DNA of 64,000 nucleotides from an uncultured Methanomassiliicoccales archaeon (GCA_964396265.1 CAYNEM010000008.1:72500-136499), one strand, 5' to 3'. Shown: positions 1-46,902, counted from the stretch's first letter. Notes: generated from the letters alone by a model not told the origin. Made by a program: numbers and translations.

Positions 1-374
1 TGGGGAACCTACCGGAGGCGGACATCGAGGTGATGGAGAAGGTGCTCGCATCGCTCCCGGAGCGCGTGCCCCCGTGGCTCCTGAACCGCCAGCACGACGT
101 GGACACGGGCGAGGACTATCACCTCTTCGGCTCCGACGTTGACCTGCGTCGGCGCGACGACGTGAACCGCATGAAGATGATCCGTTCGTACAAGGGCGTC
201 CGGCACGAGGATGGCCAGAAGGTGCGCGGGCAGCGCACGCGGTCCAACGGCCGCACGGGCCTCACCGTCGGTGTCCAGAAGAAGGCCGCGATCCAGGCGG
301 CCCAGGCGGCAAAGAAAGAGGACGAGGCCGGCGGCAGAAAGGAGAAGGCGAAGGAGCCGGAGAAGAAGGAGTGA
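1..374 (+). CDS. rps13: 30S ribosomal protein uS13 (S13), 5'-truncated at window edge
   Basis: Open in frame from base 3 (NLPEADIEVMEKVLASLPERVPPWLLNRQHDVDTGEDYHLFGSDVDL...IRSYKGVRHEDGQKVRGQRTRSNGRTG). This matches the conserved C-terminal half of archaeal uS13 followed by a Lys/Glu-rich tail. Stop TGA at 372-374. Confidence 0.85.
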   Translation, partial: GNLPEADIEVMEKVLASLPERVPPWLLNRQHDVDTGEDYHLFGSDVDLRRRDDVNRMKMIRSYKGVRHEDGQKVRGQRTRSNGRTGLTVGVQKKAAIQAAQAAKKEDEAGGRKEKAKEPEKKE

Positions 375-378: not shown

Positions 379-996
379 TTGGGCGATCCGAAGTTCCCGA
401 GAAAGAAGTATTCGCGTCCCTCCCACCCCTGGGAGGCGGATCGGATCAAGACGGAGAACGAGCTCCTGAAGAAGTACGGCTTGAAGAACAAGAAGGAGCT
501 GTGGCGTGCCCAGTCGTTCCTCTCTTCGATGCGGGGTCGCGCGCGCGAACTGCAGGCCCTCGTCCGGTACGAGAACCGCCAGGCGCTCAAGGAGCGCGAC
601 GAGCTCATGGCGCGGCTCGGCCGCCTCGGCCTCATGCCCCTCGAAGGGGCATCCCTTGACGACGTGCTCGGCCTCGATGTCGAGGCAGTGCTCTCGCGCC
701 GTCTGCAGACGATCGCGTACGTCCGAGGCCTCGCCTTCAACCCTCGTCAGGCCCGGCAGTTCATTGTCCACGGCCACATGGCGGTCGGGACCCGCACGGT
801 CCGGGTGCCCGGCTACCTGGTGACGAGGTCCGAGGAGGAGTCGATCGGGTACAACCTGCGCAGCCCGATCTCGCACGACCTCCATCCGGCGCGTCCTGGC
901 GTGCAGCAGATCACGGTTCCCGGTCCAGAGATCCAGGAGGGTCCCGGCGGCCCTGAGGAGGGGCCCCCGGAAGGCGGCGGAGGGGGTGGACCGTAG
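379..996 (+). CDS. rps4: 30S ribosomal protein uS4 (S4)
   Basis: GDPKFPRKKYSRPSHPWEADRI...KNKKELWRAQSFL...LQTIAYVRGLAFNPRQARQFIVHGHMAVGTRTVRVPGYLV is an S4 RNA-binding domain. Start placed at in-frame TTG 379, 5 nt after the rps13 stop. The longer six-frame ORF from 211 is Arg-rich out-of-frame overlap with rps13. Gly-rich tail. Confidence 0.85.
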   Translation: MGDPKFPRKKYSRPSHPWEADRIKTENELLKKYGLKNKKELWRAQSFLSSMRGRARELQALVRYENRQALKERDELMARLGRLGLMPLEGASLDDVLGLDVEAVLSRRLQTIAYVRGLAFNPRQARQFIVHGHMAVGTRTVRVPGYLVTRSEEESIGYNLRSPISHDLHPARPGVQQITVPGPEIQEGPGGPEEGPPEGGGGGGP

Positions 997-1380
997 ATGG
1001 CACGATGGGGGATTGCGCATATCTATGCGTCCTACAACAACATCCTGATTACGGTCACGGACGTCACGGGCTGCGAGACGATCACGAAGGCCACCGGCGG
1101 CATGGTCGTGAAGGCCGCAAAGGACCAGGCGTCCCCGTACGCGGCGATGAGGGCGGCGGAGAAGGTCGCGGAGGCGGCGAAGGAGAAGGGGATCGACTCG
1201 ATCCACGTGCGCGTCCGCGCGCCGGGCGGGAACAAGAGCGCGTCCCCGGGCCCAGGCGCCCAAGCTGCGATACGGGCACTCGCTCGGGCGGGCCTCACGA
1301 TCGGTCGCATTGAGGACGTCACCCCCGTGCCGCACGACGGGACAAAGCCGAAGGGCGGGCGGCGAGGACGGAGGGTGTGA
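997..1380 (+). CDS. rps11: 30S ribosomal protein uS11 (S11)
   Basis: [25 protein letters not shown]...[58 protein letters not shown] is the canonical uS11 sequence. ATG 997 directly abuts the rps4 stop. Confidence 0.92.
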
Positions 1381-1414
1381 CGTGCCCCACGGAGCCGGCG
1401 TCCAAGGTGCGGGC

Positions 1415-2263
1415 ATGTCCCTGCGCATCGACGAAATGAGCGAGCGGAGCGCGCGGTTCCTCCTCGAGGGCATCGAGCCTGGATTCGCGAACGCGCTGCG
1501 CCGGAGCCTCATCGCGGACCTGCCCAAGCTTGCGATCGAAGATGTGGAGTTCCATCTCGGACCGATCCGGGCGGAGGACGGGAAGGAGGCGGAATCCGTC
1601 GCCCCGCTCTTCGACGAAATGATCGCCCACCGCCTCGGGCTCGTCCCGCTTCCCACGGACCCCAAGCTGTTCGTCCCCCGGGCGACGTGCCCCGCTTGCG
1701 GCGGGGAGGGATGTCCGAACTGCACGGTCATCTATTCGCTGAACAAGCGCGGACCTGCAACCGTCTACAGCGGCGACCTCGAGCCGGTCGGGGACGCCAA
1801 GCTCAAGCCCGTGGACCTGGGGATTCCGCTGGTGAAGTTAGGCGAGGGACAGGCGCTGCTCGTGTACGCGACCGCGCAGCTCGGGTTCGGCCGCGAGCAC
1901 GCGAAGTGGCAGGTCGCGCAGGCGGTCGGCTACAAGTACAAGCCCGTCGTGAAGGTCGACAACCGGAAGCTCGACGCGGACAAGTTCCCCCTCGATGTCT
2001 GCCCGCCGAACATCCTTCACAACCGCGACGGCAAGATCGTCGTGGAGCCCGAGGAGGCGTGCATCCTCTGCAACGCGTGCGTCGACGCCGCGAAGGAGCG
2101 CGGGTCCGAGGGCGCCTTCGACGTGTCGGGCGATCCGACGAAGATCCTGTTCCATCTCGAGACGGATGGCTCCATGGACGCGAAGACCGCTGTGCTCGAG
2201 GCGCTCTCTATGCTCGAGACGAAGTTCTCAACGGTTTCGGACCAGACGTCGGCGATGGAGTAA
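1415..2263 (+). CDS. rpoD: DNA-directed RNA polymerase subunit D (Rpo3), with Cys-rich 4Fe-4S-type insert
   Basis: MSLRIDEMSERSARFLLEGIEPGFANALRRSLIADLP matches the Rpo3 N-terminus. Two Cys clusters are present: CPACGGEGCPNC and CILCNAC. Start chosen at ATG 1415; the ORF is open from 1310, and GTG 1382 is an alternative start. Gene order S13-S4-S11-rpoD is the conserved archaeal arrangement. Confidence 0.88.
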   Translation: MSLRIDEMSERSARFLLEGIEPGFANALRRSLIADLPKLAIEDVEFHLGPIRAEDGKEAESVAPLFDEMIAHRLGLVPLPTDPKLFVPRATCPACGGEGCPNCTVIYSLNKRGPATVYSGDLEPVGDAKLKPVDLGIPLVKLGEGQALLVYATAQLGFGREHAKWQVAQAVGYKYKPVVKVDNRKLDADKFPLDVCPPNILHNRDGKIVVEPEEACILCNACVDAAKERGSEGAFDVSGDPTKILFHLETDGSMDAKTAVLEALSMLETKFSTVSDQTSAME

Positions 2264-5200
2264 TCTCGCGCCGAGGCCGATCATCAGCGCCACCGGCAGC
2301 AGCACCGCTGCGGGTTCTGGGACTTCAGCGACGAGGACCCGGCCGCTGTCCGCCTGCCCCGTGTCGTCCCATGCGTTCGCCCCGATCGCGACGCGCCACA
2401 GGGGGTCCGACGCGAACCGGCCGCTCGCGACGGAGGTCCCGAGGCGCTCTCCGTCCTGCGCCCCGGTGAACGTCTCGTCCACGGTCTGATCGGTCGTCGG
2501 GCTGTCGAACCAGTACGCCCGGCCACGGTCCGTCCCGCCGACGTCCGCGGTCGGCGCCCCGAAGAACACGCCTGCGGTCCCGTCCCCGTCAAGGTCGACG
2601 ACCGTGACCGAATTCCCGCACTGTTCCGTCGACGTCAATCCCGCCAAGGTCGCGTCCGGAGACGCCCCCGAGGTGAGACCCGTCCCATCCGAGTTGGCGA
2701 GGAACACGTAGCCGCCGCCGACGTTGGTCGTCCTTCCCGGCGAGCCGACGGCGAGGTCCGCGTACGCGTCCGCGTTGATCGTGCCGAGTGCGACGGAGAG
2801 CCCGAACTTCTCGGCGGAGGCCTGAGCGATCAGCGTCGCCTCCGGGAGCCGGTCGCCCGATCCGCTCGTCATGTTGCTGCCCTTGAAGAAGTGCACGCGG
2901 CCGCTGTTCGAGCTCTGGAACGGTTCCCCGACGACCACGTCCGCGTACGCGTCCGAATCCACCTTCCCGACCGCGAAGTTGTAACCGAACTGCCCCGCGC
3001 TGTTCGTGCTGGGCTTGAGCGTGAAGTCCGAGGTCGATTCCGGCGAGCTGAACGGGGCCTTGTAGACGTGCACCACGCCGTCCTGGCTCGCGAGTCCTCC
3101 GTCGTTGTCCCGACCGGTTTCCCCGATGAGCACCTCGTCGAAGCTCGTGTTGTCGAGGTTGCCCGCAGCCACATACCAGCCGAAGTTCAGCGCCCCGCTC
3201 GGGGGCGTGAACTCCAGGTCCGGCGTCTCCTCGAGCCCGGACCAGCTCGATCCCCCGTAGTAGACCGAGACGTTCCCCGCGATGCCCGCGACGGACCGGC
3301 TCGAGACGAGGGCGTCCCAGAAGCCGTCCCCGTTGAACTTCCCCGCGGCGACGGAGTATCCGTGCTGGGCGTCCGTGCTCGTCCCCCGGATCCGGACGTC
3401 GGGGATCGTCTTGGAGGCGTCGAGCGGCCCATAGAAGATGTACGCGTACCCGTGCAGGGATAGGTTCAGGTTGTTCCGCGGAGCGCCCGTGAGGAGGTCC
3501 GCGAGCCCATCGTTGTTAAAGTCCCCCATGGCGACGGAGAATCCCATCTGCTCCCCGGGATCTTCGGATGCCCCGTCGTTCTCGATCTGGTACGTCGTCG
3601 GATCCACGAGGACCGGATAGGAGGCGGCGGCGAGCCATGCGCCCGGCACGAGGACCGCCAGTGCGCCCTGCCGCCATCGGAACGAGAGGTCGACGCGATC
3701 GCCCGACGCATCCTCCGCCCAGGGCCGGGACATCGCGATCCGCAATCCGCGACCGTCCGTGAGGATGAAGTCGCCCTCGATTCGGATCTCCTCCGCGGAC
3801 CCGTCCCCCGCGACCTCGACGAACAGGTCTCCGTACGCGGCGAGGCGCGTCTCGATTGCGAGCGTGTCCCCGACGCCGACCGGCGGCGGCGCGAACACGG
3901 TGATCGTCTCCTTGAGTCGGGTCGACTCCGCCTCGTACGCGACGGTCGCTTCCATCCCCGCATACGCGTCCGCATAGGTCATCCCGGCCTCGTCCGCGAT
4001 GACGCTCCCCGTCCCGGGAGAGGTCAGGAGCGCCTCGCCACCCGACCCCTCCACGAGGAACTCGGGAAGGGTCCACGAAACCGAGCCCTGCCCGGGGATT
4101 TCGAACGTGACGAGTCCGCCGGTGCCGCGGGGCAGCGTGGCCTCGTACCGTCGGATGAACGTGATGCCGCCCATCGAGGATCGCGTTCCGCGGACGCCTT
4201 CGACCGCGGTGCGGTCGCCCGTCCCCTGCCAGTCCTGGGATTCGACGACGAAATCCGCGCCGCGAAGGTCGACGCCCGCAACGTCGAGCGACCCCTCGAG
4301 CTCGCCGCCGGATGCGAACGCTTTGGCGGTGCCGGCTGCGATCCACCGACCGGACTGCCACCGGAAGCCCTCGACCGCCCGGACCCTGCCGTTCCTTCCG
4401 CGGATATCCAGGAGGGTATCCGCGACGATGCCGCCAACGCCGACTCCACCCTCCGTGAGATTCGTGTCGAAGAAGACACGGATGACATCCTCGCCTACGA
4501 CCCTCGCGGGGACGCCGGGCGGGGGCGGCGGCGCAGCCTGTCCGGGGACCGGGCGGACGCGCGCCTCTGGATGGACCGCGCCGCCGAGCGCCGTTCCCCG
4601 GACCGCCGCGTAGACATGGGCGGTCCCGTTTTGGACTGCGCTCTCGAATCGCTCGAGGTCCACGTTCGCGTTCGACACCTCGTCCGTGTCCGAGGATTGT
4701 GCCGTCCATTCCGTGAAAATCCCGTCGACGGTTCTCTCGTCGGGAATGCGCGTCACATAGGCCCGAGTGGGAGGTCCCCGGATCACGACCGGACGGTCCG
4801 CATCGATCGCCACGAGGTCTGCGGAGAGGAGCGCGGACGTCGCGAGCCCCGAGGCGTCGACGGTCAGCGTCAGCGTTCGCGGTTGCCCCACCGCGACGAC
4901 GAGGGGAGAGAAGCCGTCGATCGGGGGCGTGATGCCGAGGCGGTCGAACGTGAGCGCGTCGACGCGCACGGAGGACCCTGCGGCCCGGAAGGTGACGTTG
5001 ACGAAATCCGTGCCCGGAGCTCGTGCGACCGTCGGCCCCACCGCCTCTTGGACGACCTCGAGCGCTCCGTGCGTGGGACCGAACGCGACCTGCGAGGAGG
5101 CGCGGGACCCAGCCTGGTCGTCGGTGTGGATCACGACCCTGCCGAGGGAGTCGTCGATGGCGACGATGTCCGTGAGGTCGACCTGGACTTCGAGTTCGGA

Positions 5201-6721
5201 CCCGCGATATGCCGCAGTCGGGGCACGGATGGCCTGCCACGCGGTCCAGTTGTCCTGGTCCGTTCCGGACCACAACCAGGCGTGTTGGCCGAGGATCGTC
5301 TGGTCGCCTCCATAGACCTCCAGGAGGAGGTCCGCGCCGACCGAGCCCTCGTCGTACCCGGTCAACCTGCTTCCGTCCGCGTCGACGAACACGTAGAGGA
5401 GATCTGTGTTCGTGGGTTGCACGAACCACGTCCCCCCGACGCGGGCATAGATGGACAGTCGGTTGTCCTGCCACTTCAGGGTGTACTCTCGGAGGTCGAC
5501 GTCCGCGTTGGCGGTGCTGGAACCCTGCGTGTACCCGGGCACCCTTTGCCAATCCGAGAAGTCGCCGTCGATCACCGAGCCCCCGAACACGGGCCCGAGA
5601 GGCTCCGGCAGGAGGAACGAGACGGAAAGCAGGAGGGCCGCGGCGATTGGCACGAGGTAGAGTTTCCATCGCCCCAAGCGCGCCTCGGCGGAGGACCGGG
5701 GACCCCCCAGCCCGTTTGTGAGTCCGAGCCCGTTGGTGAGGCCATTCGTGAGGCCGTTCGTGAGGCCTGCCCGAGTGCGCTGCAGGCCGTTGACGAGGCC
5801 ATTCACGCGTCCCGCCGCAAGGCCGTTGATTGCTCCCAGGCCTTCGGTCCCTCCCGTTCGGAGGCGGACCGTTCCCCTCGGACGCGTGATCGCGCCGGGG
5901 CGTGGTGCGAGGGGGACCCTCTTTGCCCGGGCGGCGCGGTCCCGAGTGTCAGCCCGCTCGAGAAGCGTCGCCATCTCCGCTTCGATGCGCCAGATCTGAT
6001 GCGGGGAGCGGAACAGCGCTCGCACGCGCGCGATGTCCGCCTCGAGGCCATCTGCGTCGAGGGACTTCATGGTGTCCTCGAGGACCTGCACCTTGCGCAC
6101 GTTCTGGTCGAATTGGAAGAACGCCGTCCTAACGCGATCGGGGTCGTCGCGGGCGACGGCCCGAAGAGGGCCGACTTCAAACCCCGCGGCTTCCCACGCT
6201 GCGAGCCTTTCCTCGGGCGTCTCTGCGGATCCCTCCGGTCTCGTGAGCGAAGCAAGCTCCTCGAGCCCCCGGACCGCCTCCCTCTCGGCAACTTCCTCCT
6301 CCGCCGCGTGGAGCCCGTCGAGCTCCTCCGTCAGGGACGTCAGGGCTTCCTCGACGCTCGATTCTCCCGACGGCGGTTGGCCTCCGGCGGCCTGGATGGC
6401 CTTCCGTTCCGCTTCGGCGGCTTCCTCCGTCCGCCCCAGGCGGCCTAGGACGAACGACAGGAGGACCTGGAGACGGCTGAGGGAAGGATCCAGGGATTCC
6501 GCCTTGCGGAGGGCCGCCAACGCGTCGTCCCATCGATCGAACTCTGAGAGGAGGATCCCCTTCCGGAACCACAGCGTGGGATCGTCCGGGGCGCGCTCGA
6601 GCGCGGCGTCGACATCCGCGAGGGCACTCTCTGTCGGGCGCTCCTCGCGCTCGGCACGAGCCCACTTCTCAAGGAAGTCCTTGGCGAACTTCCGTCGCTC
6701 CTTGTCCTCCTCTTCCGCCAT
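2228..6721 (-). CDS. Giant membrane protein (1497 aa): cytoplasmic TPR-like N-domain, one TM, extracellular integrin-alpha-like FG-GAP beta-propeller, C-terminal VPEP-CTERM-like sorting/anchor signal
   Basis: N-terminal ~330 aa are helical and TPR-like (WFRKGILLSEFDRWDDALAALRKAESLDP), with a coding TNGL repeat (GLTNGLTNGLTNGL; 12-nt DNA repeats ~5710-5790). TM helix WKLYLVPIAAALLLSVSFLL. At least 7 FG-GAP-type repeats follow, e.g. FGYSVAAGKFNGDGFWDALV, FGYNFAVGKVDSDAYADVVVGEP, FGLSVALGTINADAYADLAVGSP, CGNSVTVVDLDGDGTAGVFFGAP. The C-terminus is AEVPEPAAVLLPVALMIGLGARLLHRRRLVRNR, i.e. a VPEP motif + TM + Arg cluster. Its last 12 codons overlap the convergent rpoD 3' end. Confidence 0.8.
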   Translation of the reverse strand: MAEEEDKERRKFAKDFLEKWARAEREERPTESALADVDAALERAPDDPTLWFRKGILLSEFDRWDDALAALRKAESLDPSLSRLQVLLSFVLGRLGRTEEAAEAERKAIQAAGGQPPSGESSVEEALTSLTEELDGLHAAEEEVAEREAVRGLEELASLTRPEGSAETPEERLAAWEAAGFEVGPLRAVARDDPDRVRTAFFQFDQNVRKVQVLEDTMKSLDADGLEADIARVRALFRSPHQIWRIEAEMATLLERADTRDRAARAKRVPLAPRPGAITRPRGTVRLRTGGTEGLGAINGLAAGRVNGLVNGLQRTRAGLTNGLTNGLTNGLGLTNGLGGPRSSAEARLGRWKLYLVPIAAALLLSVSFLLPEPLGPVFGGSVIDGDFSDWQRVPGYTQGSSTANADVDLREYTLKWQDNRLSIYARVGGTWFVQPTNTDLLYVFVDADGSRLTGYDEGSVGADLLLEVYGGDQTILGQHAWLWSGTDQDNWTAWQAIRAPTAAYRGSELEVQVDLTDIVAIDDSLGRVVIHTDDQAGSRASSQVAFGPTHGALEVVQEAVGPTVARAPGTDFVNVTFRAAGSSVRVDALTFDRLGITPPIDGFSPLVVAVGQPRTLTLTVDASGLATSALLSADLVAIDADRPVVIRGPPTRAYVTRIPDERTVDGIFTEWTAQSSDTDEVSNANVDLERFESAVQNGTAHVYAAVRGTALGGAVHPEARVRPVPGQAAPPPPPGVPARVVGEDVIRVFFDTNLTEGGVGVGGIVADTLLDIRGRNGRVRAVEGFRWQSGRWIAAGTAKAFASGGELEGSLDVAGVDLRGADFVVESQDWQGTGDRTAVEGVRGTRSSMGGITFIRRYEATLPRGTGGLVTFEIPGQGSVSWTLPEFLVEGSGGEALLTSPGTGSVIADEAGMTYADAYAGMEATVAYEAESTRLKETITVFAPPPVGVGDTLAIETRLAAYGDLFVEVAGDGSAEEIRIEGDFILTDGRGLRIAMSRPWAEDASGDRVDLSFRWRQGALAVLVPGAWLAAASYPVLVDPTTYQIENDGASEDPGEQMGFSVAMGDFNNDGLADLLTGAPRNNLNLSLHGYAYIFYGPLDASKTIPDVRIRGTSTDAQHGYSVAAGKFNGDGFWDALVSSRSVAGIAGNVSVYYGGSSWSGLEETPDLEFTPPSGALNFGWYVAAGNLDNTSFDEVLIGETGRDNDGGLASQDGVVHVYKAPFSSPESTSDFTLKPSTNSAGQFGYNFAVGKVDSDAYADVVVGEPFQSSNSGRVHFFKGSNMTSGSGDRLPEATLIAQASAEKFGLSVALGTINADAYADLAVGSPGRTTNVGGGYVFLANSDGTGLTSGASPDATLAGLTSTEQCGNSVTVVDLDGDGTAGVFFGAPTADVGGTDRGRAYWFDSPTTDQTVDETFTGAQDGERLGTSVASGRFASDPLWRVAIGANAWDDTGQADSGRVLVAEVPEPAAVLLPVALMIGLGARLLHRRRLVRNR
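5710..5790 (-). repeat. Coding 12-nt tandem repeat (TNGL x ~5) inside the FG-GAP giant gene
   Basis: Plus-strand period-12 unit gttggtgaggcc/gttcgtgaggcc encodes GLTNGLTNGLTNGLGLTNGL. Confidence 0.6.
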
Positions 6722-6826
6722 CGGTCTGCGTCCCCGCTCATGAGGGGGCGAGGGCGGATATAGGTTCTATCCTAAGGCCTCAAGTATCTATACAAATATC
6801 TCGATTCACACGTCCAATCATTGGTG

Positions 6827-7636
6827 TCAGGCGAAGTCGAAGAGGCTCTTCTGCCCCTCCTCCTTCATTCGGAAGGCCCAATCGACCGGGTCGAGCCCGT
6901 ACGCTTCCCGGAAGAGGTTCACACACGCGGGGCCGAACCCCGCGAAGTGGTTGTTGAAGAACACGTATGCGTCTGCTACGCGGTCCTCGACCTTCTTGAC
7001 TTCGCCCAGCCACGTCTTGATCTCCCCGGTGCGGTCGCGCTGGATTTCCCCGGTCAGTTTCGGAAGGCTGCGATCCCCGATGAAACGGAGGTACAGGAAG
7101 TCCGTCGTCAGGACAGGCGGTACCTGGACATAGTCGTTGTCGGACCAGCAAAGCGCGACGCCACGGTCCTCGAGCCAGGCGTACGTTTCCGGGGTGAACC
7201 ACGAGCCGTGGCGGAACTCGATCGCGTATCGATACCCGGAAGGAAGGGCGTCCACGAAGCCCTCGAGGAGCTTCCGTCCTGTCCCGATGGAGAACCGCGG
7301 GGGCAGCTGGATCACGAGCGGGCCGAGCTTGGGACGCATGAGAGAGATGGCGTTGAAGAACCAGCGCAGCGGGTCGTCGACGTTCACAAACTGCTTGTCG
7401 TGCGTAATCAGTCGCGGGAACTTGGCGGTGAACAGGAACCCTTCGGGCGTGGCGTCCGTCCAAGCGCGCGTCATGTCCTGCGACGGGATCGCGTAGAACG
7501 AGGTGTCGACCTCGACGATGTCGAACGCGCGCGCATACAAGGAGAGGTAGTCCGTCGCATCCGCCCGGGCCGGGTAGAACGAGCCGCCCCACTCCGGGTA
7601 CGACCAGCCGACGCAGCCGATCCGAAGGCGGGCCAC
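6827..7636 (-). CDS. DUF72 (UPF0759) family protein
   Basis: MARLRIGCVGWSYPEWGGSFYP...FYAIPS...AWLEDRGVALCWSDNDY...ADAYVFFNNH is a typical DUF72/YecE-like full-length match. It lies between the two co-directional giant genes. Confidence 0.8.
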   Translation of the reverse strand: MARLRIGCVGWSYPEWGGSFYPARADATDYLSLYARAFDIVEVDTSFYAIPSQDMTRAWTDATPEGFLFTAKFPRLITHDKQFVNVDDPLRWFFNAISLMRPKLGPLVIQLPPRFSIGTGRKLLEGFVDALPSGYRYAIEFRHGSWFTPETYAWLEDRGVALCWSDNDYVQVPPVLTTDFLYLRFIGDRSLPKLTGEIQRDRTGEIKTWLGEVKKVEDRVADAYVFFNNHFAGFGPACVNLFREAYGLDPVDWAFRMKEEGQKSLFDFA

Positions 7637-7689
7637 GGACGAAGATGCGTTTCAAGGATATAGATTTCCCCGGAGGTCCGGAAGGCGGC

Positions 7690-10600
7690 TCAGGCGATAG
7701 GCTGCGTAGGACCGGGCTTTCCTTCTCGCGCCTCGACGAGGGCCAGCAAGTCGGCTTCGGACATGCGGTATCCCTTTCGCCAGATCGCGAGGGCGACTAC
7801 GAGGCCCACCGTGAGGACCGCCGTGTTCGCCCAGAATCCGAGGGGGAGCCAATTCCCCGCTTCCGGGATGCGGAAGACGCCGGTCGTGAGCGACAGGACC
7901 CCAATGGCGGCCTCCCCGACCGCGAACGGCACCGCCAGCAGCATGCGCGTGAATCGTCGATCAAGGGTGACCTTCTCGTCAATCTCCGGAATCGACAGTT
8001 CTTCGAGCTTCTGCATCAGGGGGAGCCCCGCCCATCGCAGGGCACGGGCCTTCCGGTCCCCGTCTTTCGGCATGGGCACGTGTCGGTCCAGTGGACGGCT
8101 CGCGAGCGTGACGCCCGCGACGAACAGGCCGGTCGCGTAGACCAGCGCGAGGAGAGGCTTCCAGTTCGCAGACAGAGGCGCTGGCGGTGCCGCCTGAGAC
8201 ATGTACACAATGACGACGTCGAACGCGGAGTTCACCGTGAATCTGGTGGCATTCTGCGTAAACCTCGGCGGGTCCCCGGTCGTTCGGTTGGACACCTCGA
8301 GAGACCGGGCCGCATCTGCCCACGGGAACACACCGCCGATCACCGCCATCTGCATGATGACGATGCCTTCCTCGGACCACGAAGCGGTGACGGAGTGACG
8401 TTCATCGGTCCCGAGAATCGTGACCCGGGGTCGGTACTGGTGGCGGTAGGAGACGATCGTGTCCAGCGGCGCATCAATTCGCCACTCCGTCGTGCCGAGA
8501 GTCCGGTACCGTTCGCGCTCGCCCGGGAAGATGGCGTCATCCACACGGACGGCCGAGCCCGCGTCGACCCAGGCGGTCCATGCGTCGGACACGTTCGCGA
8601 GTCCCGCGGCCGCGAAGGCGGTGAAGTCCAGGGACACCGGGAGCCCGTCGAGGCCTGCGACGCGCACGTTGGTGGTGAACTGGTGCAGGTAGTGGACCGT
8701 CGCTGATAGCGGCGCGTCGACGGTCCAGAGCGTGGGGTCCGCGGTGAGGAACCTCTCCCCCACCACTCCCGGCACGAGTCCATCGACGTCGAGCGCGGAC
8801 GCATCGTCCACCCACGAAGCAAACGAGTCGTACAGCCTGTCCGAGCGGTCGCTGCCGAACAGCGTGAACCCGATTCCCGCAGGCCACGCGGCCGAGAGCC
8901 CGATCAGGGTGAGTGTTGCAGGATGCTGCAGGGCATAATTGGCGGTGATCGTCGCGTCCACGGATCCGACGGTTACGGTGTGGTCGATTGCGCCGCCATC
9001 GTCCCATCCGAGGAACGCAAGGCGCGAGCCGCCGAACGAATCGAAGTCGATCGAGGCGATGCGATGGAGTTCGCCCGGCTGCCAAACGAACGTCGCAGGG
9101 ACCGTGTAATCCGTCCCATCCACTTGGACGACGCCCCAATCCGGGGAGCGGGTGATCGTGTAGGAAACGTAGGTCGGGCAGACGGTCCAGAACAACCAAG
9201 GGTTCGGCACAGGCCCCGGCCCCAGAGAAGTGCCATCGAGGTCGGTGCCCGATGTGACGGTGACCGTGTACAACATGCACTCGGAGAAGGCCTGATGGAC
9301 GAGGTCCAAGGTCCGGGTGTCCACCCAAACGGGGTTGGTTGCGACGGACGGCGCGACCGTCCACGCGACCGAGCTGGAGTCCATGTCCTCGCTGAACTCG
9401 ATGCGGATCGTCGCATCGAGTGCGACGTCCACCGCACCATGCACCGGCGTCGTGGCGGTGATGAAGGGCGGAGTCGTGGCCGCGAGCACCTCGAGGATTC
9501 CCTGGGGGATCTCCTGATAGATAGTCGAATTGTCCCAGCGCACGTAGGTGGCTCGCGCATCCGGGCTTAGGCCGATGGCCTGGACCCCGAGCCGCGTGGA
9601 CGTCACGCCGTACTGCACCGCCCACGTCTCGTTGATGTCGATGCTGCTGACGTTCCACTGCAGGACCGTCCGGTCCGCGAGCCGGACCATGAACTCCGGC
9701 GGCCTCGGCATGCCCGACATCGGGTCCACGAAGCTACCGGGCACGACGTTCAGGTACGGCAGGATCGCGTCGGCCACCATGGGGGTGACGTCCGTGGGGT
9801 CCGGGTCCACGCCGGCCGTGCGGTTGATGCGCGTCCCGATGTCCGCGTAGATCTGGAGGAGGTCCTGCGGCGTGCTCGCCTGGTAGAACCGTCCTCCGGT
9901 CGGGATCGCGATGTTCTCGAGGAACGTCTGGTCGATGCTCGAGCCGAGTCCGATCGTGTAGATCACGATGCCCTCAGTGACCGCTTGGTTCACGATCGCG
10001 TTCGTGTTGGGGCACGGCAGACCGGCGGGCACCGTGCACTGCCCGTCCGTGAGCAGGATCTCCACGCGCGTCCGCGTGCGGTCGGAATACGTAATGAGCC
10101 ACGTGTTCCCCACTTGGAGCGCGTCGTCGATGTTCGTGCCCCCGAAGCAGCCCGGGCTGCACGCCGTGGTGTTCGCGTCGTTCATCAGGTCGATCTTCCC
10201 GGGCAGGGTCGTGTACGTGAGCGGGCGTCCGTTCACGACCCATGCGACATCCGAGAACCCGACGATGGAGGCCCGGTCGTCCACACGCATGCCGCCGATG
10301 TAGGAGTTCACTGCCTGGACGCGCACGTTCGACGGGTCGTTCGAGTTCATGCTACCCGAGACGTCGATCTGGAAGATGACGTCCTGGGGGACCTGGATCT
10401 CGACGGGGAGGCCAGCGCCCTCGATGAGGATCGTGACGTTCGCGACCTCGTTGTACGGCGACCCGGATCCTTCGAGGTACACCGTCCCCGGGATCACTGT
10501 GCGGTAGATGTCGAAGTGGGGGCTTAGTCCGATGCGCAGCCTGACGGACGCGCGGGCGACAGCCTTGGACGCGGCACTCGCGGACACGATGATCGTGTTC

Positions 10601-13095
10601 CCGTCCCCGAGCGGGGCCACGGACGGGATCTGGACCTCGGCGAGGAACGACGCGCTGCCCGAAGGACCGAGGACACCGAGGTCCGGGGTCGCGTCCGGGT
10701 CCGCTGCGGAATCCGACAGGGGCGTGCCGTTCGTCCATGTGTACGTGACCGGCCAGTTCGGCATCGCCGACGTGCCGTCCACGTTGATCACTTCCGGGAC
10801 GGACTGTCGGTTCGTCGCGGTGAGGAGAAACGCGATCGTGGTGCCGATGTCCGTGAGGATGCTCGAATCCTGTGCGAGTCCGACGAGGGCGAGGGACGGG
10901 ACTGCGTCGAAGGACCATCCGTTCGCGACGGCGCTGGGATCGTCGTGGGCACGTGAACCGCCGACGCCGGCGTTGCGGGTCGCGCTCAGCCCTGCCGTAT
11001 GCGCGGAATCCCAGCCAAACATGTCGAGGAGCCGACCGCTCGCATCGTAGAGGTACAGGTTGTCCGTCGCAGCGTCCAAGGCCGCCCACCACCCGGGGCC
11101 CGCGGATTCGAAGAAGAAGGCGTACGGGTTCGCCCCGTCGATCAGTCCGCCCGAGAAGGTGTACACGGAGTCCGCGACGAGGCGGTACCCGGTGAGGTCG
11201 GCGCTCGTCCGGGCGAAGATCTCCGCGAAGAGGTCCCCGGGCGCAGCCGGGTTGAAGAGGACCTCGTTGAGCACCACGGGCGGTGCGAGGTTTGGCGGCG
11301 GCACAAGGTTCCGCGCGCCGAAGGTCGACGCCACGGAGCGCGTCCAGGAGGTCACGTAGTCGAGCGTCCCCGCGAATCGTGCGGTCGACTCCGCCCCGAG
11401 CGGATCGGGCGCGATCCCGTACGGCCCGGATCCCGCCTTCGCGAGGACGTCGGCCCCCCGTTCGATTCGGACGAGCGCGCCCTCCGTCCCGAGGTCCAGC
11501 GCCGCCACAAGGTCCGCGCCCGTCGCCCCGACTACGACGTGGCTCCGCGCGGGCCAGGTCCCGAGGGGGGTGAGGTCCACGACGGATGCCCCTGCATACA
11601 TGGTCGCTCCGCTGAAGTCGAACGCCGTCCGGCCGAAGTTGTAGATCTCAACGCGTGCCTCGGGCGTGGGTGTGTCTTGGACTTCCGTGATCACGAGCGG
11701 AGACACCTGGACCGAGGTTGCGTACGTGTCGTACGTCCCGCCGCGCGCGTCGTCCCAGACCGCGAAAACCCCGAATCCGCCCGTCCTCAGCGTCGGGCTA
11801 ACCTGGATGGTCGCGTCGTCGGCCGGGTTCGCATTCCGGTCCGTGTCGTCGAGGCGCAGGTCGTTCCCGTTGACGACGCCGTCCCCCCAGGTGATTCCGT
11901 CCGCAGACCACGCGGCGTAGGTGTCGTAGTCCCCCGCACGGTTGTCGTCCCACGCGACCCAGATCGTCCCGGCGAGGGCGGACACGGAGGCCTGTCGCAT
12001 CGAGACGGGGGTGATGAGCGCATCATCGACGGCGACGGGCGGGGACCAGCTGGTCCCGTCGTGGCCCCATGCGTACATGGCGTGGGCGATCGTGGGCGTC
12101 TGCGACTCGATCCAAGCGACGTGCGCGACCAGCATATCGTCCACGAACACGTCCGGCGCGAACAGGTTCGCAGTCGGGTTCGCGGCCATGGAGACGACGG
12201 CGGTGGTCCAGCTCGCCCCCGCATCGTCGGATCGTGCGACGCTGATCGCCGGTCCGTTCCCGAGGACCTGCCGCCAGGCCACGGCGATCGTGTCGCCCTT
12301 CGCGTCGATCCGCGGTTGGAGGTTCGTCGCGCTCAGGGACGAGACCTGGACCTCGGCGCCCCAGGTGGCCCCCCCGTCGGGCGACCCCCGGAAGTAGACG
12401 TGAAAGGCCAGCGGGTCACGGTTGTCTGCCCAAACCGCGTAGAGGCGGCCCGACGTCGCTGCGATCGTCGGCGTGATCGACGCGTTGTTCGCCGGCGCGC
12501 TGTCGATGCGCCGAGGCGCGCTCCACGACACGCCGTTGTCCGACGAGACGAACCAGACGTCCGCGTTCGGTCCTGCCTCCGTCTGGTAGGCGACGTACGC
12601 ACGCCCCTGGACCGGGACGGCCTCGCGCTCCACGACGATGCGGGGGAACGACACGTTCCCGAGGGCCCCGTCCACGCGCACCGTGGGGCTCCAGGAGACG
12701 CCGTCCGCGGAGCGGGAGTAGTAGGCACCCCGGGGCGACGTCTTGTTCTCGGAGCGCACCACATGGAGGACGCCGTTCGCGTCGACCGCCAGCGACGGGT
12801 TCCGAGCGTCCGTCGGGCCGGGCTCGATGGGGACGTTCACATCCGCGGTCGGCAGCGCATTGACGGACAACGGCTGGGGGAGGATCGTGAGAATCAGGAG
12901 TGAGAGCGCGACGAGCGCGAATGTGCGCAAGGGTCTTGCGGGGACCCTGTCCGGCGCTCGGCGCCCTGCCTGGGCATGGGCTCCCGACCCTCCCTTTTCC
13001 ACCGCGCGGGCATTCGTCACGGGGACTAAAAGGAATCCCCCGAATGGTCTTCGCGTGCGCAGTCGGACGCTCGCGTTCTCTCCTCTCTCTATCAT
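7690..13095 (-). CDS. Giant surface protein (~1800 aa): signal peptide, BNR/Asp-box sialidase-like beta-propeller, vWA domain with MIDAS, Ig-like domain, C-terminal TM anchor with cytoplasmic tail
   Basis: Many Asp-box motifs SxDxGxTW (SADGVSWSP, SSDNGVSWSA, SPDGGATWGA, SDDAGASWTT, GHDGTSWSP, SADGITWGD). vWA/MIDAS: VIFQIDVSGSMNSN...IVGFSD...LLTDGQ...IYTIGLG. Ig-like: ATTPVHGAVDVALDATIRIEFSEDM. C-terminal TM segments are LLALVYATGLFVAGVTLA and AAIGVLSLTTGVF, plus a cytoplasmic tail. The ORF is open to 13341, but a signal peptide (RTFALVALSLLILTILPQPLSVNA) points to a start at ATG 13095 or TTG 12930. Confidence 0.8.
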   Translation of the reverse strand: MIERGENASVRLRTRRPFGGFLLVPVTNARAVEKGGSGAHAQAGRRAPDRVPARPLRTFALVALSLLILTILPQPLSVNALPTADVNVPIEPGPTDARNPSLAVDANGVLHVVRSENKTSPRGAYYSRSADGVSWSPTVRVDGALGNVSFPRIVVEREAVPVQGRAYVAYQTEAGPNADVWFVSSDNGVSWSAPRRIDSAPANNASITPTIAATSGRLYAVWADNRDPLAFHVYFRGSPDGGATWGAEVQVSSLSATNLQPRIDAKGDTIAVAWRQVLGNGPAISVARSDDAGASWTTAVVSMAANPTANLFAPDVFVDDMLVAHVAWIESQTPTIAHAMYAWGHDGTSWSPPVAVDDALITPVSMRQASVSALAGTIWVAWDDNRAGDYDTYAAWSADGITWGDGVVNGNDLRLDDTDRNANPADDATIQVSPTLRTGGFGVFAVWDDARGGTYDTYATSVQVSPLVITEVQDTPTPEARVEIYNFGRTAFDFSGATMYAGASVVDLTPLGTWPARSHVVVGATGADLVAALDLGTEGALVRIERGADVLAKAGSGPYGIAPDPLGAESTARFAGTLDYVTSWTRSVASTFGARNLVPPPNLAPPVVLNEVLFNPAAPGDLFAEIFARTSADLTGYRLVADSVYTFSGGLIDGANPYAFFFESAGPGWWAALDAATDNLYLYDASGRLLDMFGWDSAHTAGLSATRNAGVGGSRAHDDPSAVANGWSFDAVPSLALVGLAQDSSILTDIGTTIAFLLTATNRQSVPEVINVDGTSAMPNWPVTYTWTNGTPLSDSAADPDATPDLGVLGPSGSASFLAEVQIPSVAPLGDGNTIIVSASAASKAVARASVRLRIGLSPHFDIYRTVIPGTVYLEGSGSPYNEVANVTILIEGAGLPVEIQVPQDVIFQIDVSGSMNSNDPSNVRVQAVNSYIGGMRVDDRASIVGFSDVAWVVNGRPLTYTTLPGKIDLMNDANTTACSPGCFGGTNIDDALQVGNTWLITYSDRTRTRVEILLTDGQCTVPAGLPCPNTNAIVNQAVTEGIVIYTIGLGSSIDQTFLENIAIPTGGRFYQASTPQDLLQIYADIGTRINRTAGVDPDPTDVTPMVADAILPYLNVVPGSFVDPMSGMPRPPEFMVRLADRTVLQWNVSSIDINETWAVQYGVTSTRLGVQAIGLSPDARATYVRWDNSTIYQEIPQGILEVLAATTPPFITATTPVHGAVDVALDATIRIEFSEDMDSSSVAWTVAPSVATNPVWVDTRTLDLVHQAFSECMLYTVTVTSGTDLDGTSLGPGPVPNPWLFWTVCPTYVSYTITRSPDWGVVQVDGTDYTVPATFVWQPGELHRIASIDFDSFGGSRLAFLGWDDGGAIDHTVTVGSVDATITANYALQHPATLTLIGLSAAWPAGIGFTLFGSDRSDRLYDSFASWVDDASALDVDGLVPGVVGERFLTADPTLWTVDAPLSATVHYLHQFTTNVRVAGLDGLPVSLDFTAFAAAGLANVSDAWTAWVDAGSAVRVDDAIFPGERERYRTLGTTEWRIDAPLDTIVSYRHQYRPRVTILGTDERHSVTASWSEEGIVIMQMAVIGGVFPWADAARSLEVSNRTTGDPPRFTQNATRFTVNSAFDVVIVYMSQAAPPAPLSANWKPLLALVYATGLFVAGVTLASRPLDRHVPMPKDGDRKARALRWAGLPLMQKLEELSIPEIDEKVTLDRRFTRMLLAVPFAVGEAAIGVLSLTTGVFRIPEAGNWLPLGFWANTAVLTVGLVVALAIWRKGYRMSEADLLALVEAREGKPGPTQPIA

Positions 13096-13118
13096 CTGAG
13101 ATAACCGAGAAAGGCCCC

Positions 13119-13125
13119 TTAAATA
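13119..13125. promoter_or_regulatory. TATA-like box (TTAAATA) in the 73-bp divergent intergenic region between two giant genes
   Basis: The A/T-rich element ccTTAAATAgcg is the only such element between minus-strand start 13095 and plus-strand start 13169. It lies ~44 nt upstream of GTG 13169. Confidence 0.4.
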
Positions 13126-13168
13126 GCGAGCCGACCCGTGAAAAGGTAGCCAGTCTCCCGGGGAGAGT

Positions 13169-16100
13169 GTGTCCTCGCAGCATCGGCCCCAACGAGCCAT
13201 AGGCCACCGAGTGCCGGCCCTCGCGGTCGCGCTCTTCAGCGTGTTCGCTTCCCTCCTCGCGGTGATCCCGCGGGTCACCTCGGATCCGTGGGTGACCGCC
13301 AACGGGGACGGCACCTCGGACGCCGTGTGGAACTTCAGCAATCCAGGGGACTACGTCCTTACGAACACGCAGATCAGCGGGGGCGCCGGGCTGCTGGCGT
13401 CCGCAGGTCCGGGCGTCCAGTACTGGAACAGCACGACTGCGGGGGACTTCGCCGGCCCGGACTCCGCGACGAACGTGGACTTCACAAGTTCTCCGGGGGA
13501 CGTGATGCTCGCGACCACCTCCGGCGCTTCGACGCTCCTCGTGCTGCAGCCGGCCGCCACGGGCGAGGATTCCTGGCTGGAGGAGTTCAACCCCACCACG
13601 ACCCACGGAGCCGAAGCGTTCATGTCCGCCGATGGGACGGGCTCGCGGCGCCGGCCGGTGCTCCGGTTTGACCTTTCCTCACTCCCGGTGGGTGCCGTGA
13701 TCGACGGCGCCGTTCTCTACCTGTACCAGTACACCGACGCTGACGGCACCTCGGTTGTCATATCCGTGCACGAAGTGATCGCAAGTTGGACCGAGGCCGA
13801 TGTCACGTGGGACGACCGGAACGCGGTGAGTGCGTGGGCGTCCCCCGGCGGCGACTACGATCCTCACGTCATCGCGCAGGCAACGATCGACGCCGCGAAC
13901 AACGTGTGGCGGTCCTGGAACATCACCCAGCTCGCAGACCTGTGGTACCGCGGCGTGCGCCCGAACAATGGTCTTATCTTGGTCACACCGTCCGCAGCCG
14001 TCCAGCTGAACAAGGACTTCCGATCGTCCGACTACGGGGTGGCGGCCGAACGACCCCGACTGGAGATCCGATACCGTATCTTGGGCGCAACCGGAGAATA
14101 CGTATCGCAGGTTCTCGGGCCGGGCACGCCGACCGCTTGGCAGACGATTTCGTGGAACCCATCGGTCCGCAGCCTCGTCGCGGACGAGTTCAACGGTGCG
14201 TCGCTCGACCCGAAGTGGACCTGGCTCAACGCGCCCGCGTCGTTTGACGTGGGAACGACGCTGCCGGGAAACCTACACGTCGTCTCCACCGCCAATTCGC
14301 AGATCGACGGCGCCACGTTCACAGGAAACGCGTTGTGGAACGATGTTGTCGGCGACTTCAGCGCGGAGATGAAGTTCAGCAGTTCGCCGACGGCGAGCAG
14401 CAATCGCGTGGGCCTCATGGCCTTGCTCTCGCAGCGGGACTGGTTCTCCGTCGGGAAACATTATTCTGGCGGGGTCGCGAACTGGATGACCCGCGAGACG
14501 GTCGACGCGGTCACGACAACCATCTTCAACGGGGCGAGCGGCAACCCAATCCCCGCATGGGTCCGCCTCGTGCGGACGGGGAACACGTTCGACGCGTGGA
14601 CGAGTTCGGACGGAACCGCCTGGACCTTGCGGGACACATACGCGCCCTCGGACCAGTACCCGCTGGCGATCCGGCTCGCATTCTACATCGCACACGGGGC
14701 GGCGGGCTCGGGCTTCTCGGCCGACGTGGACTACATCCGAGTCACGCACGGCGCCGGCGCGACGGTCTCCGTGTCGACGCGGACCGGCGACACGAACCCG
14801 GTCGACGGGACGTGGTCCGGCTGGTCCGCCTCCTACCCGTTGTCCTCTGGGTCGGCGATGGCGGGGACCTCGAACTTCGTCGAGTACCGCCTCTCCTTCG
14901 CCGTCTCCACCGCCTCCCCCGACCACCGTCCCGTCGTCGGGGATGTGAACATGACTTCAGGGACCGCGTCCTACGTGGCCGCGGGGACGATCGAGACGAA
15001 CGATCTCGTTCCCGCAGACCTCCAGCAGTGGGGAACCCTCACCGTCGCCGACGCCCCGAACGGGCAGACCGTGAGCTACGAATACTCCCTCAACTCCGGC
15101 GGGAGCTGGACGCCCGTCGTACCCCCCGCGGACCTTTCGGGCGTGAGCGTCGCATCCGGACGGATCCGCTTCCGCGTCTCGCTCTCCACCTCGGACAGCC
15201 AGTTTACCCCCACGGTGAGCGAGATTCGCCTCACGTACACGCACCGCCTCGACCACTTCTACGTGACCGCCTGGGCGGCTGCGGCCGCGGGCGCGCCCTT
15301 CTCGGTCACGGTCACCGCCAAGGATGCCGCGAACGCGACGATCCTGAGCTGGACGGGCACCGTGACGTTGGCGGCGCGCCTCCTCGACGGCATCACGCCC
15401 GGCAACGGCATCCTCGGCACCACGAGCCTCGTGATCTCCGCGGGCGGCACCGCCACCCTCGCGACGGAGAACTACACGCGCACTGAGACGATCCGGATTC
15501 ACGCTTCCTTCGGAGCCCAGGAAGGATTGAGCGGTCCGGTCCTCATCTCCCCAGGCCCGATCGTCCGCGTCGTCGTCGCGCCGCCCTCCGTCACGCTCTT
15601 GCCCTTCGCGAGCCAGTCCTTCACCGCCACCGCGTTCGACGCTTGGGACAACCCCGTGCCGGGAGCCGTGTTCGCATGGATCGTCACGAACGGCGTCGGG
15701 ACACTGAACACCTCCTCCGGTCCGACCGTGACCCTGACCGCCCAACCGCCCGACGGTGCGAATGGGACCCTGGAGGCGACCGCCTCCGGCGTCACCGGGG
15801 TTGCGCTCATCACGGTGGGGATCCCGAGCCTCGACCACTTCTACGTCACCGCGTCTGCGTCCGCGGCGGCGGGAGCACCGTTCTCGGTCACCGTCACCGC
15901 CAAAGATGCGACGAACAACACGATCATGAGCTGGAACGGCACCGTCACCCTGGCGGCCCGTCTGCTCGACGGCATCACGCCGGGGAACGGGATCCTCGGC
16001 ACGACGAGCCTCGCGATCTCCGCCGGCGGCACCGCGACGCTTGCGACGGAGAACTACACGCGCGCGGAGACGATCCGGATACACGCTTCCTTCGGAGCCC

Positions 16101-25822: not shown

Positions 25823-25847
25823 GCCTCGGCAAGCGGCCTCAAAGGGA

Positions 25848-25932
25848 TGCGTGGGCCAGGATTTGAACCTGGGAACTCCTGCGAGACCAGACCCTGAATC
25901 TGGCGCCTTTGACCATGCTGGGCGACCCACGC
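25848..25932 (-). tRNA. tRNA-Leu (anticodon CAG), class II with long variable arm
   Basis: Reverse complement is GCGTGGGTCGCCCAGCATGGTCAAAGGCGCCAGATTCAGGGTCTGGTCTCGCAGGAGTTCCCAGGTTCAAATCCTGGCCCACGCA. It has a 7-bp acceptor stem, D-arm GCC..GGTCAAAGGC, anticodon loop TTCAGGG, an extended variable arm, T-loop TTCAAAT and discriminator A. No encoded CCA. Confidence 0.85.
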
Positions 25933-26028
25933 AACAGGGACGCGAGAGGGCCGAACCTAGAAGAACCTTGCTGAGCGGGCAACGAGGTCTATCTCTGAAT
26001 CAAGATAAAAATCGATGGACGCGGTGTG

Positions 26029-44700: not shown

Positions 44701-45142
44701 CGAACCGTGGCGCAAGGGCGTTCAACAGATCCGTGCCGCGGTCAGCACAACGCAGGGGGTCGCAACGGCCATCGTGATCCCTGGCGCGGTCGCCTCCGTC
44801 GTGCTCACGCCGGGAGCCGCCCTGGTCCGTACGGGGGAGTCCCTCGTCTTCATCGCCCGGGCGTACGATGCGAAAGGCAACCGGGTCGAGAACGCGACGA
44901 TCTCGTGGCACGTCGACGGGGGGATCGGGACCGTCGATGGCGACGGCAGGTTCACCGCCACAGCCGGAGGCTTGGGTCGCGTCGTGGTCGTCGCCACTGG
45001 CGGCGGGGGGACGTCCAGCGCCCTCGCGCGGGTGGAAGTGCCCACCTCGCCGCTCTACTTGCTCGCCTTGGCGGTCCTCATCCTCGTCCCGCCGCTCGTC
45101 CTCTGGTGGCGCCGGCGGAAGCCGCCCGACGCGGCCTCATGA
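41759..45142 (+). CDS. Cell-surface protein (1127 aa): signal peptide, BNR/Asp-box beta-propeller, ~10 Big_2-like Ig domains, C-terminal TM anchor
   Basis: Signal peptide MRGSVSLILVILAFAALAPGFAGA. Asp-boxes YSTDGGITWSA, KSTDGGVTFAP, RSTDGGQTWAP, SSFDGGASWSV, RSSDNGVTWSA. Repeated ~85-aa units (…TATGYDAxGNxV…WSxxxGxIxxxGxFTP…) and the C-terminal segment PLYLLALAVLILVPPLVLWWRRRKPP. Confidence 0.8.
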   Translation: MRGSVSLILVILAFAALAPGFAGAADDFPSLSSASIAPTSIPPIPASGDGSPGTTIPPIPSPLDAPFGPNVRVSETDTSGNQNEITMAVASDGRIHMGWNDARAPNPDYRCGYSYSTDGGITWSANRLLHLDPWEADGDPFVMVDSNDDVYFICMPFNRTAGGSRIVVYKSTDGGVTFAPPVIASDTTNGFNDKPWAHAVGTVLHVCYANFAGGTELRYTRSTDGGQTWAPTRILDRNGNGCVFASSAAGMLYLGWVRGGGIYVLSSFDGGASWSVPRFAGAAPFTGAGDQRAGPLPAIAADWIGGNVYVVWTADDGLGAWDVLLSRSSDNGVTWSAPVTPSDDSNGRQFMPGIGVDAGGMVHVSWYDSRTGLMTYRYAASANGGRDWIPSFRVTDTEWVSQFFIGDYTTLVADSFGYVNCAWADARSGEVEAYFARAIPPGPPTLSRIEVTPPEAWTDTDTPVMFTALGYDQFGSPYPSFPAWQATGGSIVGGAYIPQVAGDWQVWANQSGVSGSAVVHVSPGGLARIAIDPASATLTADDTVQFTATGYDARDNVVAIVPSWASTNGSVSAGLFTPYRMGTWAVFANASGISGSAPVTVLPGALAAIDVTPPVAAMTADEVLDFDATGRDAKGNPVPVSPRWSSGGGTIDAQGFYDAHAVGVWDVRAEAFGVAGLAQVTVVPGALALIEVTPASVVITADEVASFAAQGFDADGNSVAITPAWSTDAGSVSTAGLYTPGPVGAHVVIAAVGFVSGLATVAVFPGALARIDVDPPAPTITADQTVDLVATGYDAKGNRMGAVFLWEAMCGIVTQSGRFEPALAGVCVVYANASGVSGSAAITVVPGLLARLDVTPPTITITADETAQFSVRGFDAKGNEVPAAPLWTADAGGISSSGRYSPTIRGTWAVLAQEGLVVGSAQVTVVPGALVRIVVVPDLVTIRSDETATFSAVGMDRAGNEVVLGTVVWSTTNGTIEGGRFEPWRKGVQQIRAAVSTTQGVATAIVIPGAVASVVLTPGAALVRTGESLVFIARAYDAKGNRVENATISWHVDGGIGTVDGDGRFTATAGGLGRVVVVATGGGGTSSALARVEVPTSPLYLLALAVLILVPPLVLWWRRRKPPDAAS

Positions 45143-46864: not shown

Positions 46865-46902
46865 GCCACGACGCCTCCCCCAGTCCTGCGCGGAGGGACA
46901 CG

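Follow-up and report, generated by a model that had tools for sequence, protein, structure and literature searches.

The giant surface protein of this uncultured Thermoplasmata archaeon, encoded tail-to-tail with rpoD (positions 2228–6721, minus strand), ends in 31 residues that are read here, with modest confidence, as a diverged sorting signal of the PEF-CTERM/PEP-CTERM type that would be processed by an archaeosortase, and the gene has kept its convergent position next to rpoD since ancient times. Unless a locus is named, all coordinates refer to the window, which is the whole 64-kb stretch of DNA that was analysed. The signal class itself is already known; what is new here is the drift of an archaeal PEF-CTERM signal to a PEP-type sequence, found on an unusual protein with two membrane anchors.

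Gene and domain anatomy of the giant protein

The giant gene translates to a protein of 1497 aa with the C-terminus ...GRVLVAEVPEPAAVLLPVALMIGLGARLLHRRRLVRNR, which can be divided into GRVLVAE, VPEP, AAVLLPVALMIGLGARLL and HRRRLVRNR. Its GC3 of 0.85 is of the coding type in a window with an overall GC content of 66%. Run SRR12685296 contains an exact copy of the ORF, on the public Logan contig SRR12685296_19152, and full-length homologues are found in the protein database. From the N-terminus, the protein is composed of a TPR module, a first transmembrane helix, an ectodomain that includes an FG-GAP propeller, the VPEP motif, a second transmembrane helix and a basic tail.

The TPR module (aa 20–108, positions 6398–6664, minus strand) was identified by Pfam and lies within an N-terminal region of approximately 350 aa that is followed by an anchor helix, with no cleavable signal peptide at the N-terminus. 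This helix (aa 354–372, positions 5606–5662, minus strand) is single and strongly hydrophobic by hydropathy, and is preceded by Arg/Lys residues and conserved (L)TNG repeats. Due to the presence of these residues and repeats ahead of the helix, a cytoplasmic location is predicted for the first ~350 residues, and the helix would act as a signal anchor. Residues ~373–1466 are predicted to be extracellular.

The FG-GAP propeller (positions 2324–3598, minus strand) is assigned by both profile and fold. PF01839 scores 60.1 bits against a gathering score of 22.1, and the AF2 model of residues 1030–1497 (pLDDT 83.8, pTM 0.86) exhibits a propeller with seven blades. The best Foldseek matches of the propeller are integrin alpha headpieces (E 6.7e-18, TM about 0.65). 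In the same model GRVLVAE forms the last strand of the propeller and VPE a three-residue linker, after which a continuous helix runs to the end of the chain. The VPEP motif (aa 1467–1470, positions 2312–2323, minus strand) thus links the last propeller strand to the C-terminal transmembrane helix PAAVLLPVALMIGLGARLL (aa 1470–1488, positions 2258–2314), which is identified by hydropathy and corresponds to the AF2 helix at fragment residues 441–467. The basic cluster HRRRLVRNR (aa 1489–1497, positions 2231–2257), delimited from the translation and the tail alignment, completes the protein on the cytoplasmic side.

It is hardly credible that the VPEP, helix and Arg pattern and the overlap with rpoD described below are products of chance or of gene calling. 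High-GC DNA does give many long spurious ORFs, and the short HMMs stay below threshold on this tail, but the GC3, the Pfam domains, the full-length homologues and the confidently modelled fold all speak for a real gene, and both the tail and the overlap are conserved.

The Gly/Thr/Asn repeat GLTNGLTNGLTNGLGLTNGLGG is located just ahead of the first membrane helix (positions ~5690–5830, aa ~298–344), and its G, T and N positions are nearly invariant in homologues of both the TPR type and the KaiC type. In the latter (P0007–P0011 from loci L086 and L088), a KaiC/RecA-like ATPase domain (PF06745) replaces the TPR module encoded within positions 5663–6721. Their ectodomain and tail resemble those of the giant, with 41–44% identity over 80%, and their genes do not adjoin rpoD. 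P0009 and P0011 also exhibit a weak MEDS match. The cytoplasmic module has been swapped between the giant, with its TPR, and these KaiC-like proteins.

The C-terminal tail and the search for an archaeosortase

The sequence-only reading had described the end of the giant as a VPEP motif, a transmembrane helix and an Arg cluster resembling PEP-CTERM signals. The translation agrees with this description, and the motif is retained in orthologues and paralogues. The tripartite architecture of PEP-CTERM signals is present at the extreme C-terminus, where VPEP is followed by 19 hydrophobic residues and HRRRLVRNR*. The curated models score the window tail below their thresholds, with 8.2 bits for the PEP-CTERM model TIGR02595 (cut-off 16) and 9.3 bits for Pfam PF07589 (20.7). 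The PEF-CTERM model TIGR03024 (cut-off 23 bits) gave no match to the window tail at E ≤ 10, and the residues directly before the helix are PEP in place of the PEF signature. The tails of several families of PEP-CTERM proteins matched the window tail weakly.

All 26 orthologues with readable tails (15 from loci adjoining rpoD and 11 from the database) end in G-R-V-x-V-x-x-[IV]-P-E-[F/P/Y/L/N/G], followed in every case examined by approximately 20 hydrophobic residues and an R/K cluster. The variants comprise PEF, PEY, PEL, PEN, PEP and PEG, which leaves [IV]PE as the conserved core. Twenty paralogous Thermoplasmata giants with unrelated ectodomains, many of which carry an N-terminal KaiC-like ATPase and no TPR, end in [IV]PEF, a helix and an R-rich tail. 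Since the signature recurs on unrelated ectodomains, its presence is not tied to the FG-GAP strand found ahead of it in the giant. TIGR03024 scores 23.8 bits on the homologue P0017, which passes the cut-off of 23 and is named "PEF-CTERM sorting domain-containing protein" by NCBI. The orthologue in L005 scores 22.0 bits, the others 12–21 and the paralogues 14.6–21.4. Within this family a VPEP clade (the window giant, L003, P0001–P0008 and P0010) now has proline as the fourth residue, giving VPEP[A/G] with its bacterial appearance. Set beside the orthologues, the window's VPEP proves to be a derivative of a PEF-type archaeal tail and not an inheritance from the bacterial family. We conclude that the window tail is most probably a diverged member of the PEF/PEP-CTERM signal class that falls strictly within neither curated family. 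The sorting-signal reading is well supported as a resemblance and tentative as a mechanism.

No other protein in the window carries the tail of the giant. A BNR/Big-domain protein of 1127 aa that begins with a signal peptide (positions 41759–45142, plus strand) ends in VEVPTSPLYLLALAVLILVPPLVLWWRRRKPPDAAS, composed of VEVPTSP, a helix and RRRK. It scores 15.8 bits with the Heimdall-CTERM model, below the cut-off of 24, and its C-terminal anchor is different from that of the giant. A small protein at positions 59443–59988 ends in a helix and a KRSR tail without a PE motif.

In the proposed mechanism, the C-terminal helix would first retain the C-terminus of the giant in the membrane. In the next step, [IV]PE[F/P] would be recognised by an archaeosortase, probably of an ArtC-like kind and encoded at another site in the genome, which would remove the helix and the basic tail, and the new C-terminus would probably be attached to lipid. 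The mature protein would remain fixed at both ends because of the 350-aa cytoplasmic TPR module and the N-terminal anchor helix. Both the processing (cleavage and attachment to lipid) and the existence of such an enzyme in this genome are extrapolated by analogy with known sorting systems.

The sequence-only reading also stated that the window contains no archaeosortase gene, and two scans bear this out. Pfam scans of the likely genes in the window found none, and neither did an HMM based on more than 100 archaeosortase/exosortase representatives and run on all six-frame ORFs of at least 70 aa from the window, from approximately 8 kb beyond its start (L081) and from L084–86. No archaeosortase is encoded within 10 kb on either side of the orthologues and paralogues in L084–L089, or next to any gene with a PEF/PEP tail in the loci examined.

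In the related loci, which total 1.14 Mb, one gene (L032:15985–16977) scores 55.9 bits with TIGR04178 (cut-off 23). The best subfamily match of its product is ArtC (TIGR03762), which aligns over the full length with 41.6 bits, below the cut-off of 100. ArtC is given as the PEF-CTERM-specific archaeosortase in a passage of PMC9723798 that cites Haft 2012. A profile search of 1.84 billion representatives returned 631 relatives; among those with high GC, P0139 comes from a 67.7%-GC Thermoplasmatota MAG, and P0120 bears the JGI name "archaeosortase C (PEF-CTERM variant)". Archaeosortases are present in the class Thermoplasmata, and the one that was typed, from L032, is ArtC-like. A word-indexed protein search for archaeosortases gave seven proteins, and its repetition with an alignment brought no more. 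A metagenome scan with the archaeosortase alignment gave four loci, none of which (0/4) has a PEF/PEP-tailed neighbour, and the neighbourhoods of the archaeosortases in L082, L083 and L087 contain no PE[FP]-tailed substrates. No single assembly was found to contain a giant together with an archaeosortase; the assemblies looked up at NCBI all differed.

L032 belongs to a Thermoplasmata MAG with 51% GC. At L032:15077–16977, its ArtC-like gene overlaps the stop of an ORF that resembles an NAD-dependent epimerase, by eye and from the N-terminal sequence only, and this overlap suggests that the two genes form one operon. The archaeosortase gene is located 5 kb downstream of rpoD, past a convergent gene for a 1285-aa NHL-repeat surface protein. 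On the 73%-GC contig L083 (L083:1554–3513), the gene just upstream of the archaeosortase-family gene ends in ...VVAEDIPALSAAGVIAVAGGLMIGGWMNRKRRTT. This tail is composed of EDIPALSAAG, a helix and NRKRRTT, and the protein that bears it may serve as a dedicated substrate whose signature is of another kind.

A serious rival reading, to which a substantial minority chance is given, takes the tail for nothing more than a second membrane span. The helix would then be a permanent stop-transfer anchor oriented by its positive-inside Arg residues, [IV]PE[F/P] would cap the structure at the interface with the membrane, and the giant would be a two-pass, receptor-like protein with both ends in the cytoplasm and no sortase processing. 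This reading accounts for the cytoplasmic N-terminal TPR (a KaiC-like ATPase in paralogues) with its anchor helix and without a signal peptide, for the window tail falling under the curated HMM thresholds, and for the failure to find an archaeosortase near the family members examined or in the window. It also draws on P0017 (aa 814–838) and P0027 (aa 827–860), in which the PEF, helix and basic element is internal and is followed by 200–500 highly acidic residues that would form a long cytoplasmic extension. Such an internal position is odd for a "CTERM" sorting signal and is as compatible with an ordinary second membrane span as with a sorting signal. Against this rival, the signature residues, the helix spacing and the basic cluster match known archaeosortase/exosortase signals and recur on unrelated ectodomains, one homologue passes TIGR03024, and archaeosortases occur in the class, with an ArtC-like enzyme in L032.

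A further proposal is rather unlikely. The Thermoplasmata giants may represent an undescribed class of two-anchor surface receptors in which the signature is not a simple export tag, or the VPEP clade may point to a PEP-specific archaeosortase subtype. The receptor layout may consist of a TPR module or KaiC-like ATPase, an anchor helix, a huge ectodomain (with the integrin-like propeller at its end in the window's giant), [IV]PE[F/P], a second helix and a cytoplasmic tail. If this were true, the giants could combine an N-terminal helix with a C-terminal lipid, or undergo a regulated cut that releases the cytoplasmic tail (200–500 aa in P0017 and P0027), and the VPEP clade would indicate a not-yet-defined archaeal archaeosortase subtype specific for PEP.

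The end of the ribosomal cluster and the convergent overlap

The window begins within the ribosomal protein S13 gene, the 3' part of which (positions 3–374, plus strand) runs off the window start as an ORF with a Pfam Ribosomal_S13 match in the public contig. The gene for ribosomal protein S4 (positions 379–996, plus strand, 205 aa, Pfam S4) has a TTG start and is followed by that for ribosomal protein S11 (positions 997–1380, plus strand), which was identified by Pfam Ribosomal_S11 and tblastn. The last gene of the cluster is rpoD (positions 1382–2263, plus strand), which encodes the 293-aa RNA polymerase subunit D with Pfam RNA_pol_L and RNA_pol_A_bac domains. Its start is either the GTG at 1382, as in the public assembly, or the ATG at 1415, and its TAA stop is at 2261–2263. 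The C-terminus of rpoD, ...FSTVSDQTSAME*, is kept in relatives.

The canonical archaeal cluster in A. pernix and M. jannaschii consists of eight genes, S13-S4-S11-rpoD-L18e-L13-S9-rpoN (PMC10833476), and in Asgard archaea it is split elsewhere, between S11 and rpoD (PMC10833476). As the sequence-only reading had noted, the cluster in the window stops after rpoD, with no L18e, L13, S9 or rpoN next to it. That reading went on to suggest a rearrangement breakpoint in this genome, and a comparison of relatives contradicts the suggestion. A scan for rpoD, with one genome per species, gave 80 related loci, all from uncultured Thermoplasmata, and 82 sequences were searched in all (the 80 loci, the window and its Logan contig L081). 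The cluster ends at rpoD in 80/80 of these loci. With E. coli queries, L13 and S9 were found in 0/80 loci in the rpoD flank (up to 10 kb), and the control queries S11, S13 and S4 matched in 80, 71 and 28 loci, respectively. Motif scans for rpoN and S9 found neither in any related locus. The rpoD gene is followed by L18e-L13-S9-rpoN neither in the window nor in any of the 80 loci.

The first gene past rpoD was called in 60 loci and is L18e in none of them. It encodes a BlaI-like regulator in 18 loci, the giant in 13 (15 by tblastn over the 80 loci) and the large subunit of DNA polymerase D in five, where the ORFs are approximately 53% identical to the Pfam-annotated PolD of L082. Assorted other genes take this place in the remaining loci of the census. 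In several relatives, only short ORFs resembling translated tRNA genes (by eye) lie just after rpoD.

The idea that a recent rearrangement or insertion, with the giant as its mark, interrupted the S13-S4-S11-rpoD-L18e-L13-S9-rpoN order in this genome has some points in its favour. A. pernix and M. jannaschii possess the full cluster, which stops after rpoD here, and the closest relative (L001) lacks giants between rpoD and gcvT, so that the content of this slot varies. The idea is nonetheless very improbable. L18e is never the first downstream gene, and L13 and S9 are missing from the flanks (up to 10 kb) of all 80 related loci. Four clades, with rpoD identities as low as about 52%, have the giant in convergent orientation to rpoD, and in a neighbour-joining tree of rpoD, which as a single-protein tree is indicative only, the clades with an adjoining giant fall on either side of the midpoint root. 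A locus where the giant is only 49% identical also has identical synteny and an overlap of the same 36 nt. The sequence-only reading had itself proposed comparing the rpoD-L18e synteny in relatives and had named a shared operon ending as the outcome that speaks against a recent breakpoint; a shared ending is what was found. With rpoD as the last gene of the cluster across the class, there is no recent breakpoint. The split after rpoD is an old trait of the whole class Thermoplasmata, which corrects the view of it as an event in this genome, and the giant gene has been tail-to-tail with rpoD since early in the evolution of the class.

The overlap of the giant and rpoD genes (positions 2228–2263, TCAACGGTTTCGGACCAGACGTCGGCGATGGAGTAA) is convergent and 36 nt long, with both frames in codon register. 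The last 12 codons of the giant had been proposed to be encoded opposite the last codons of rpoD, and they are so exactly, codon for codon, with LHRRRLVRNR* of the giant antisense to STVSDQTSAME* of rpoD. Within it, RRRLVR of the giant is opposite SDQTSA of rpoD (positions 2237–2254). In the orthologue locus with the 49% identical giant, the overlap is the same 36 nt with 31/36 bases identical, and the neighbouring genes are alike, comprising a disaggregatase-repeat giant, a BNR/VWA giant and DUF72. At the other orthologue loci the overlap measures 8 nt in seven, 9 nt in three, and 12, 24 and 60 nt in one each, and in L004 the two genes are separated by a gap of 46 nt. Transcriptional interference had been suggested as a possible effect; an overlap conserved for so long must at least be tolerated, and its age argues that it is harmless or useful. 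A simple terminator scan gave no credible intrinsic candidate, and within 1 kb downstream of either stop there is no run of four or more T. Given this lack of T-runs and terminators after rpoD and the giant, the two transcripts probably overlap at their 3' ends. The Arg codons in the tail of the window clade are simply the antisense of the Ser/Ala/Thr-rich C-terminus of rpoD.

The pairing of RRRLVR with [SA]DQ[TA]SA of rpoD is seen in the same register in three genomes (the window, L003:692–709 and L084:~14510–14527). It is a minor instance of conserved dual coding.

Past rpoD, the window encodes the giant (minus strand), a DUF72 protein (minus), a BNR/VWA giant (minus), a DNRLRE/disaggregatase-repeat giant (plus) and gcvT (minus). 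The DUF72 gene (positions 6827–7636) is co-directional with the giant and upstream of it, and is a conserved neighbour in L003, L084 and L001. The interval from rpoD to gcvT (positions 2228–20257, approximately 18 kb) thus contains three giant surface-protein genes besides DUF72. Their products are the FG-GAP protein of 1497 aa, a BNR/VWA/LTD/Big_5 protein of 1883 aa and the DNRLRE/disaggregatase-repeat protein of 2362 aa. In the close relative L001, DUF72 alone lies between rpoD and gcvT (L001:3217–5151), without the ~18-kb giant block. Elsewhere in the window, a 2366-aa protein (positions 31181–38281, minus strand) features fibronectin-III and purple-acid-phosphatase-N domains and eight predicted membrane helices in its last 300 residues. 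A chaperone cluster (positions 45200–54133) encodes a thermosome subunit, GrpE-DnaK-DnaJ and then a Cdc48-type AAA ATPase. The sole tRNA in the window is a tRNA-Leu(CAG) at positions 25845–25933 on the minus strand.

Significance and comparison with known systems

If the sorting-signal reading of the tail holds, the range of archaeosortase-type signals would grow to include a large family of giant surface proteins from uncultured Thermoplasmata of soil and groundwater. In this family the signature has drifted naturally from PEF to PEP among orthologues of a single line. This drift may help to define what archaeosortases recognise, and the VPEP clade would be useful for improving the short curated HMMs that now miss it. 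The presence of such a signal on proteins with N-terminal cytoplasmic signalling modules also raises the question of whether it is processed at all.

The experimentally studied archaeal system is the pairing of PGF-CTERM with archaeosortase A in Haloferax volcanii. Here the protein loses its C-terminal signature, helix and basic tail and becomes lipid-anchored, and the substrates of ArtA bear N-terminal signal peptides. The logic would be alike in the giant, whereas both the signature (PGF) and the enzyme subfamily differ. A cytoplasmic N-terminal domain with an anchor helix in place of a cleavable signal peptide is atypical of known archaeosortase substrates.

The PEF-CTERM/archaeosortase C pair (TIGR03024/TIGR03762) is likewise archaeal, and most orthologues and paralogues of the giant share its order of [IV]PEF, helix and basic cluster. 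One homologue of the giant passes TIGR03024, and an ArtC-like enzyme is encoded in a Thermoplasmata relative. The window clade differs from this system in having VPEP[A/G] in place of PEF, with no TIGR03024 match, and the giant differs in having a cytoplasmic N-terminal domain and an anchor where a signal peptide would be expected. With the bacterial PEP-CTERM/exosortase system (TIGR02595 and PF07589; XrtA/EpsH), the giant shares an identical VPEP core followed by a helix and an RRR cluster, but the giant is archaeal and scores under the cut-off.

The integrin alpha subunit also features a seven-bladed FG-GAP propeller, one C-terminal membrane helix and a short basic cytoplasmic tail. Its propeller is located at the distal N-terminus, whereas that of the giant is directly against the membrane at the C-terminus; the sequence identity to the giant propeller is ~19%, and no beta subunit is evident. 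Compared with the canonical alpha/L18e cluster, the window has the first four genes, contiguous and in the same order, and ends at rpoD.
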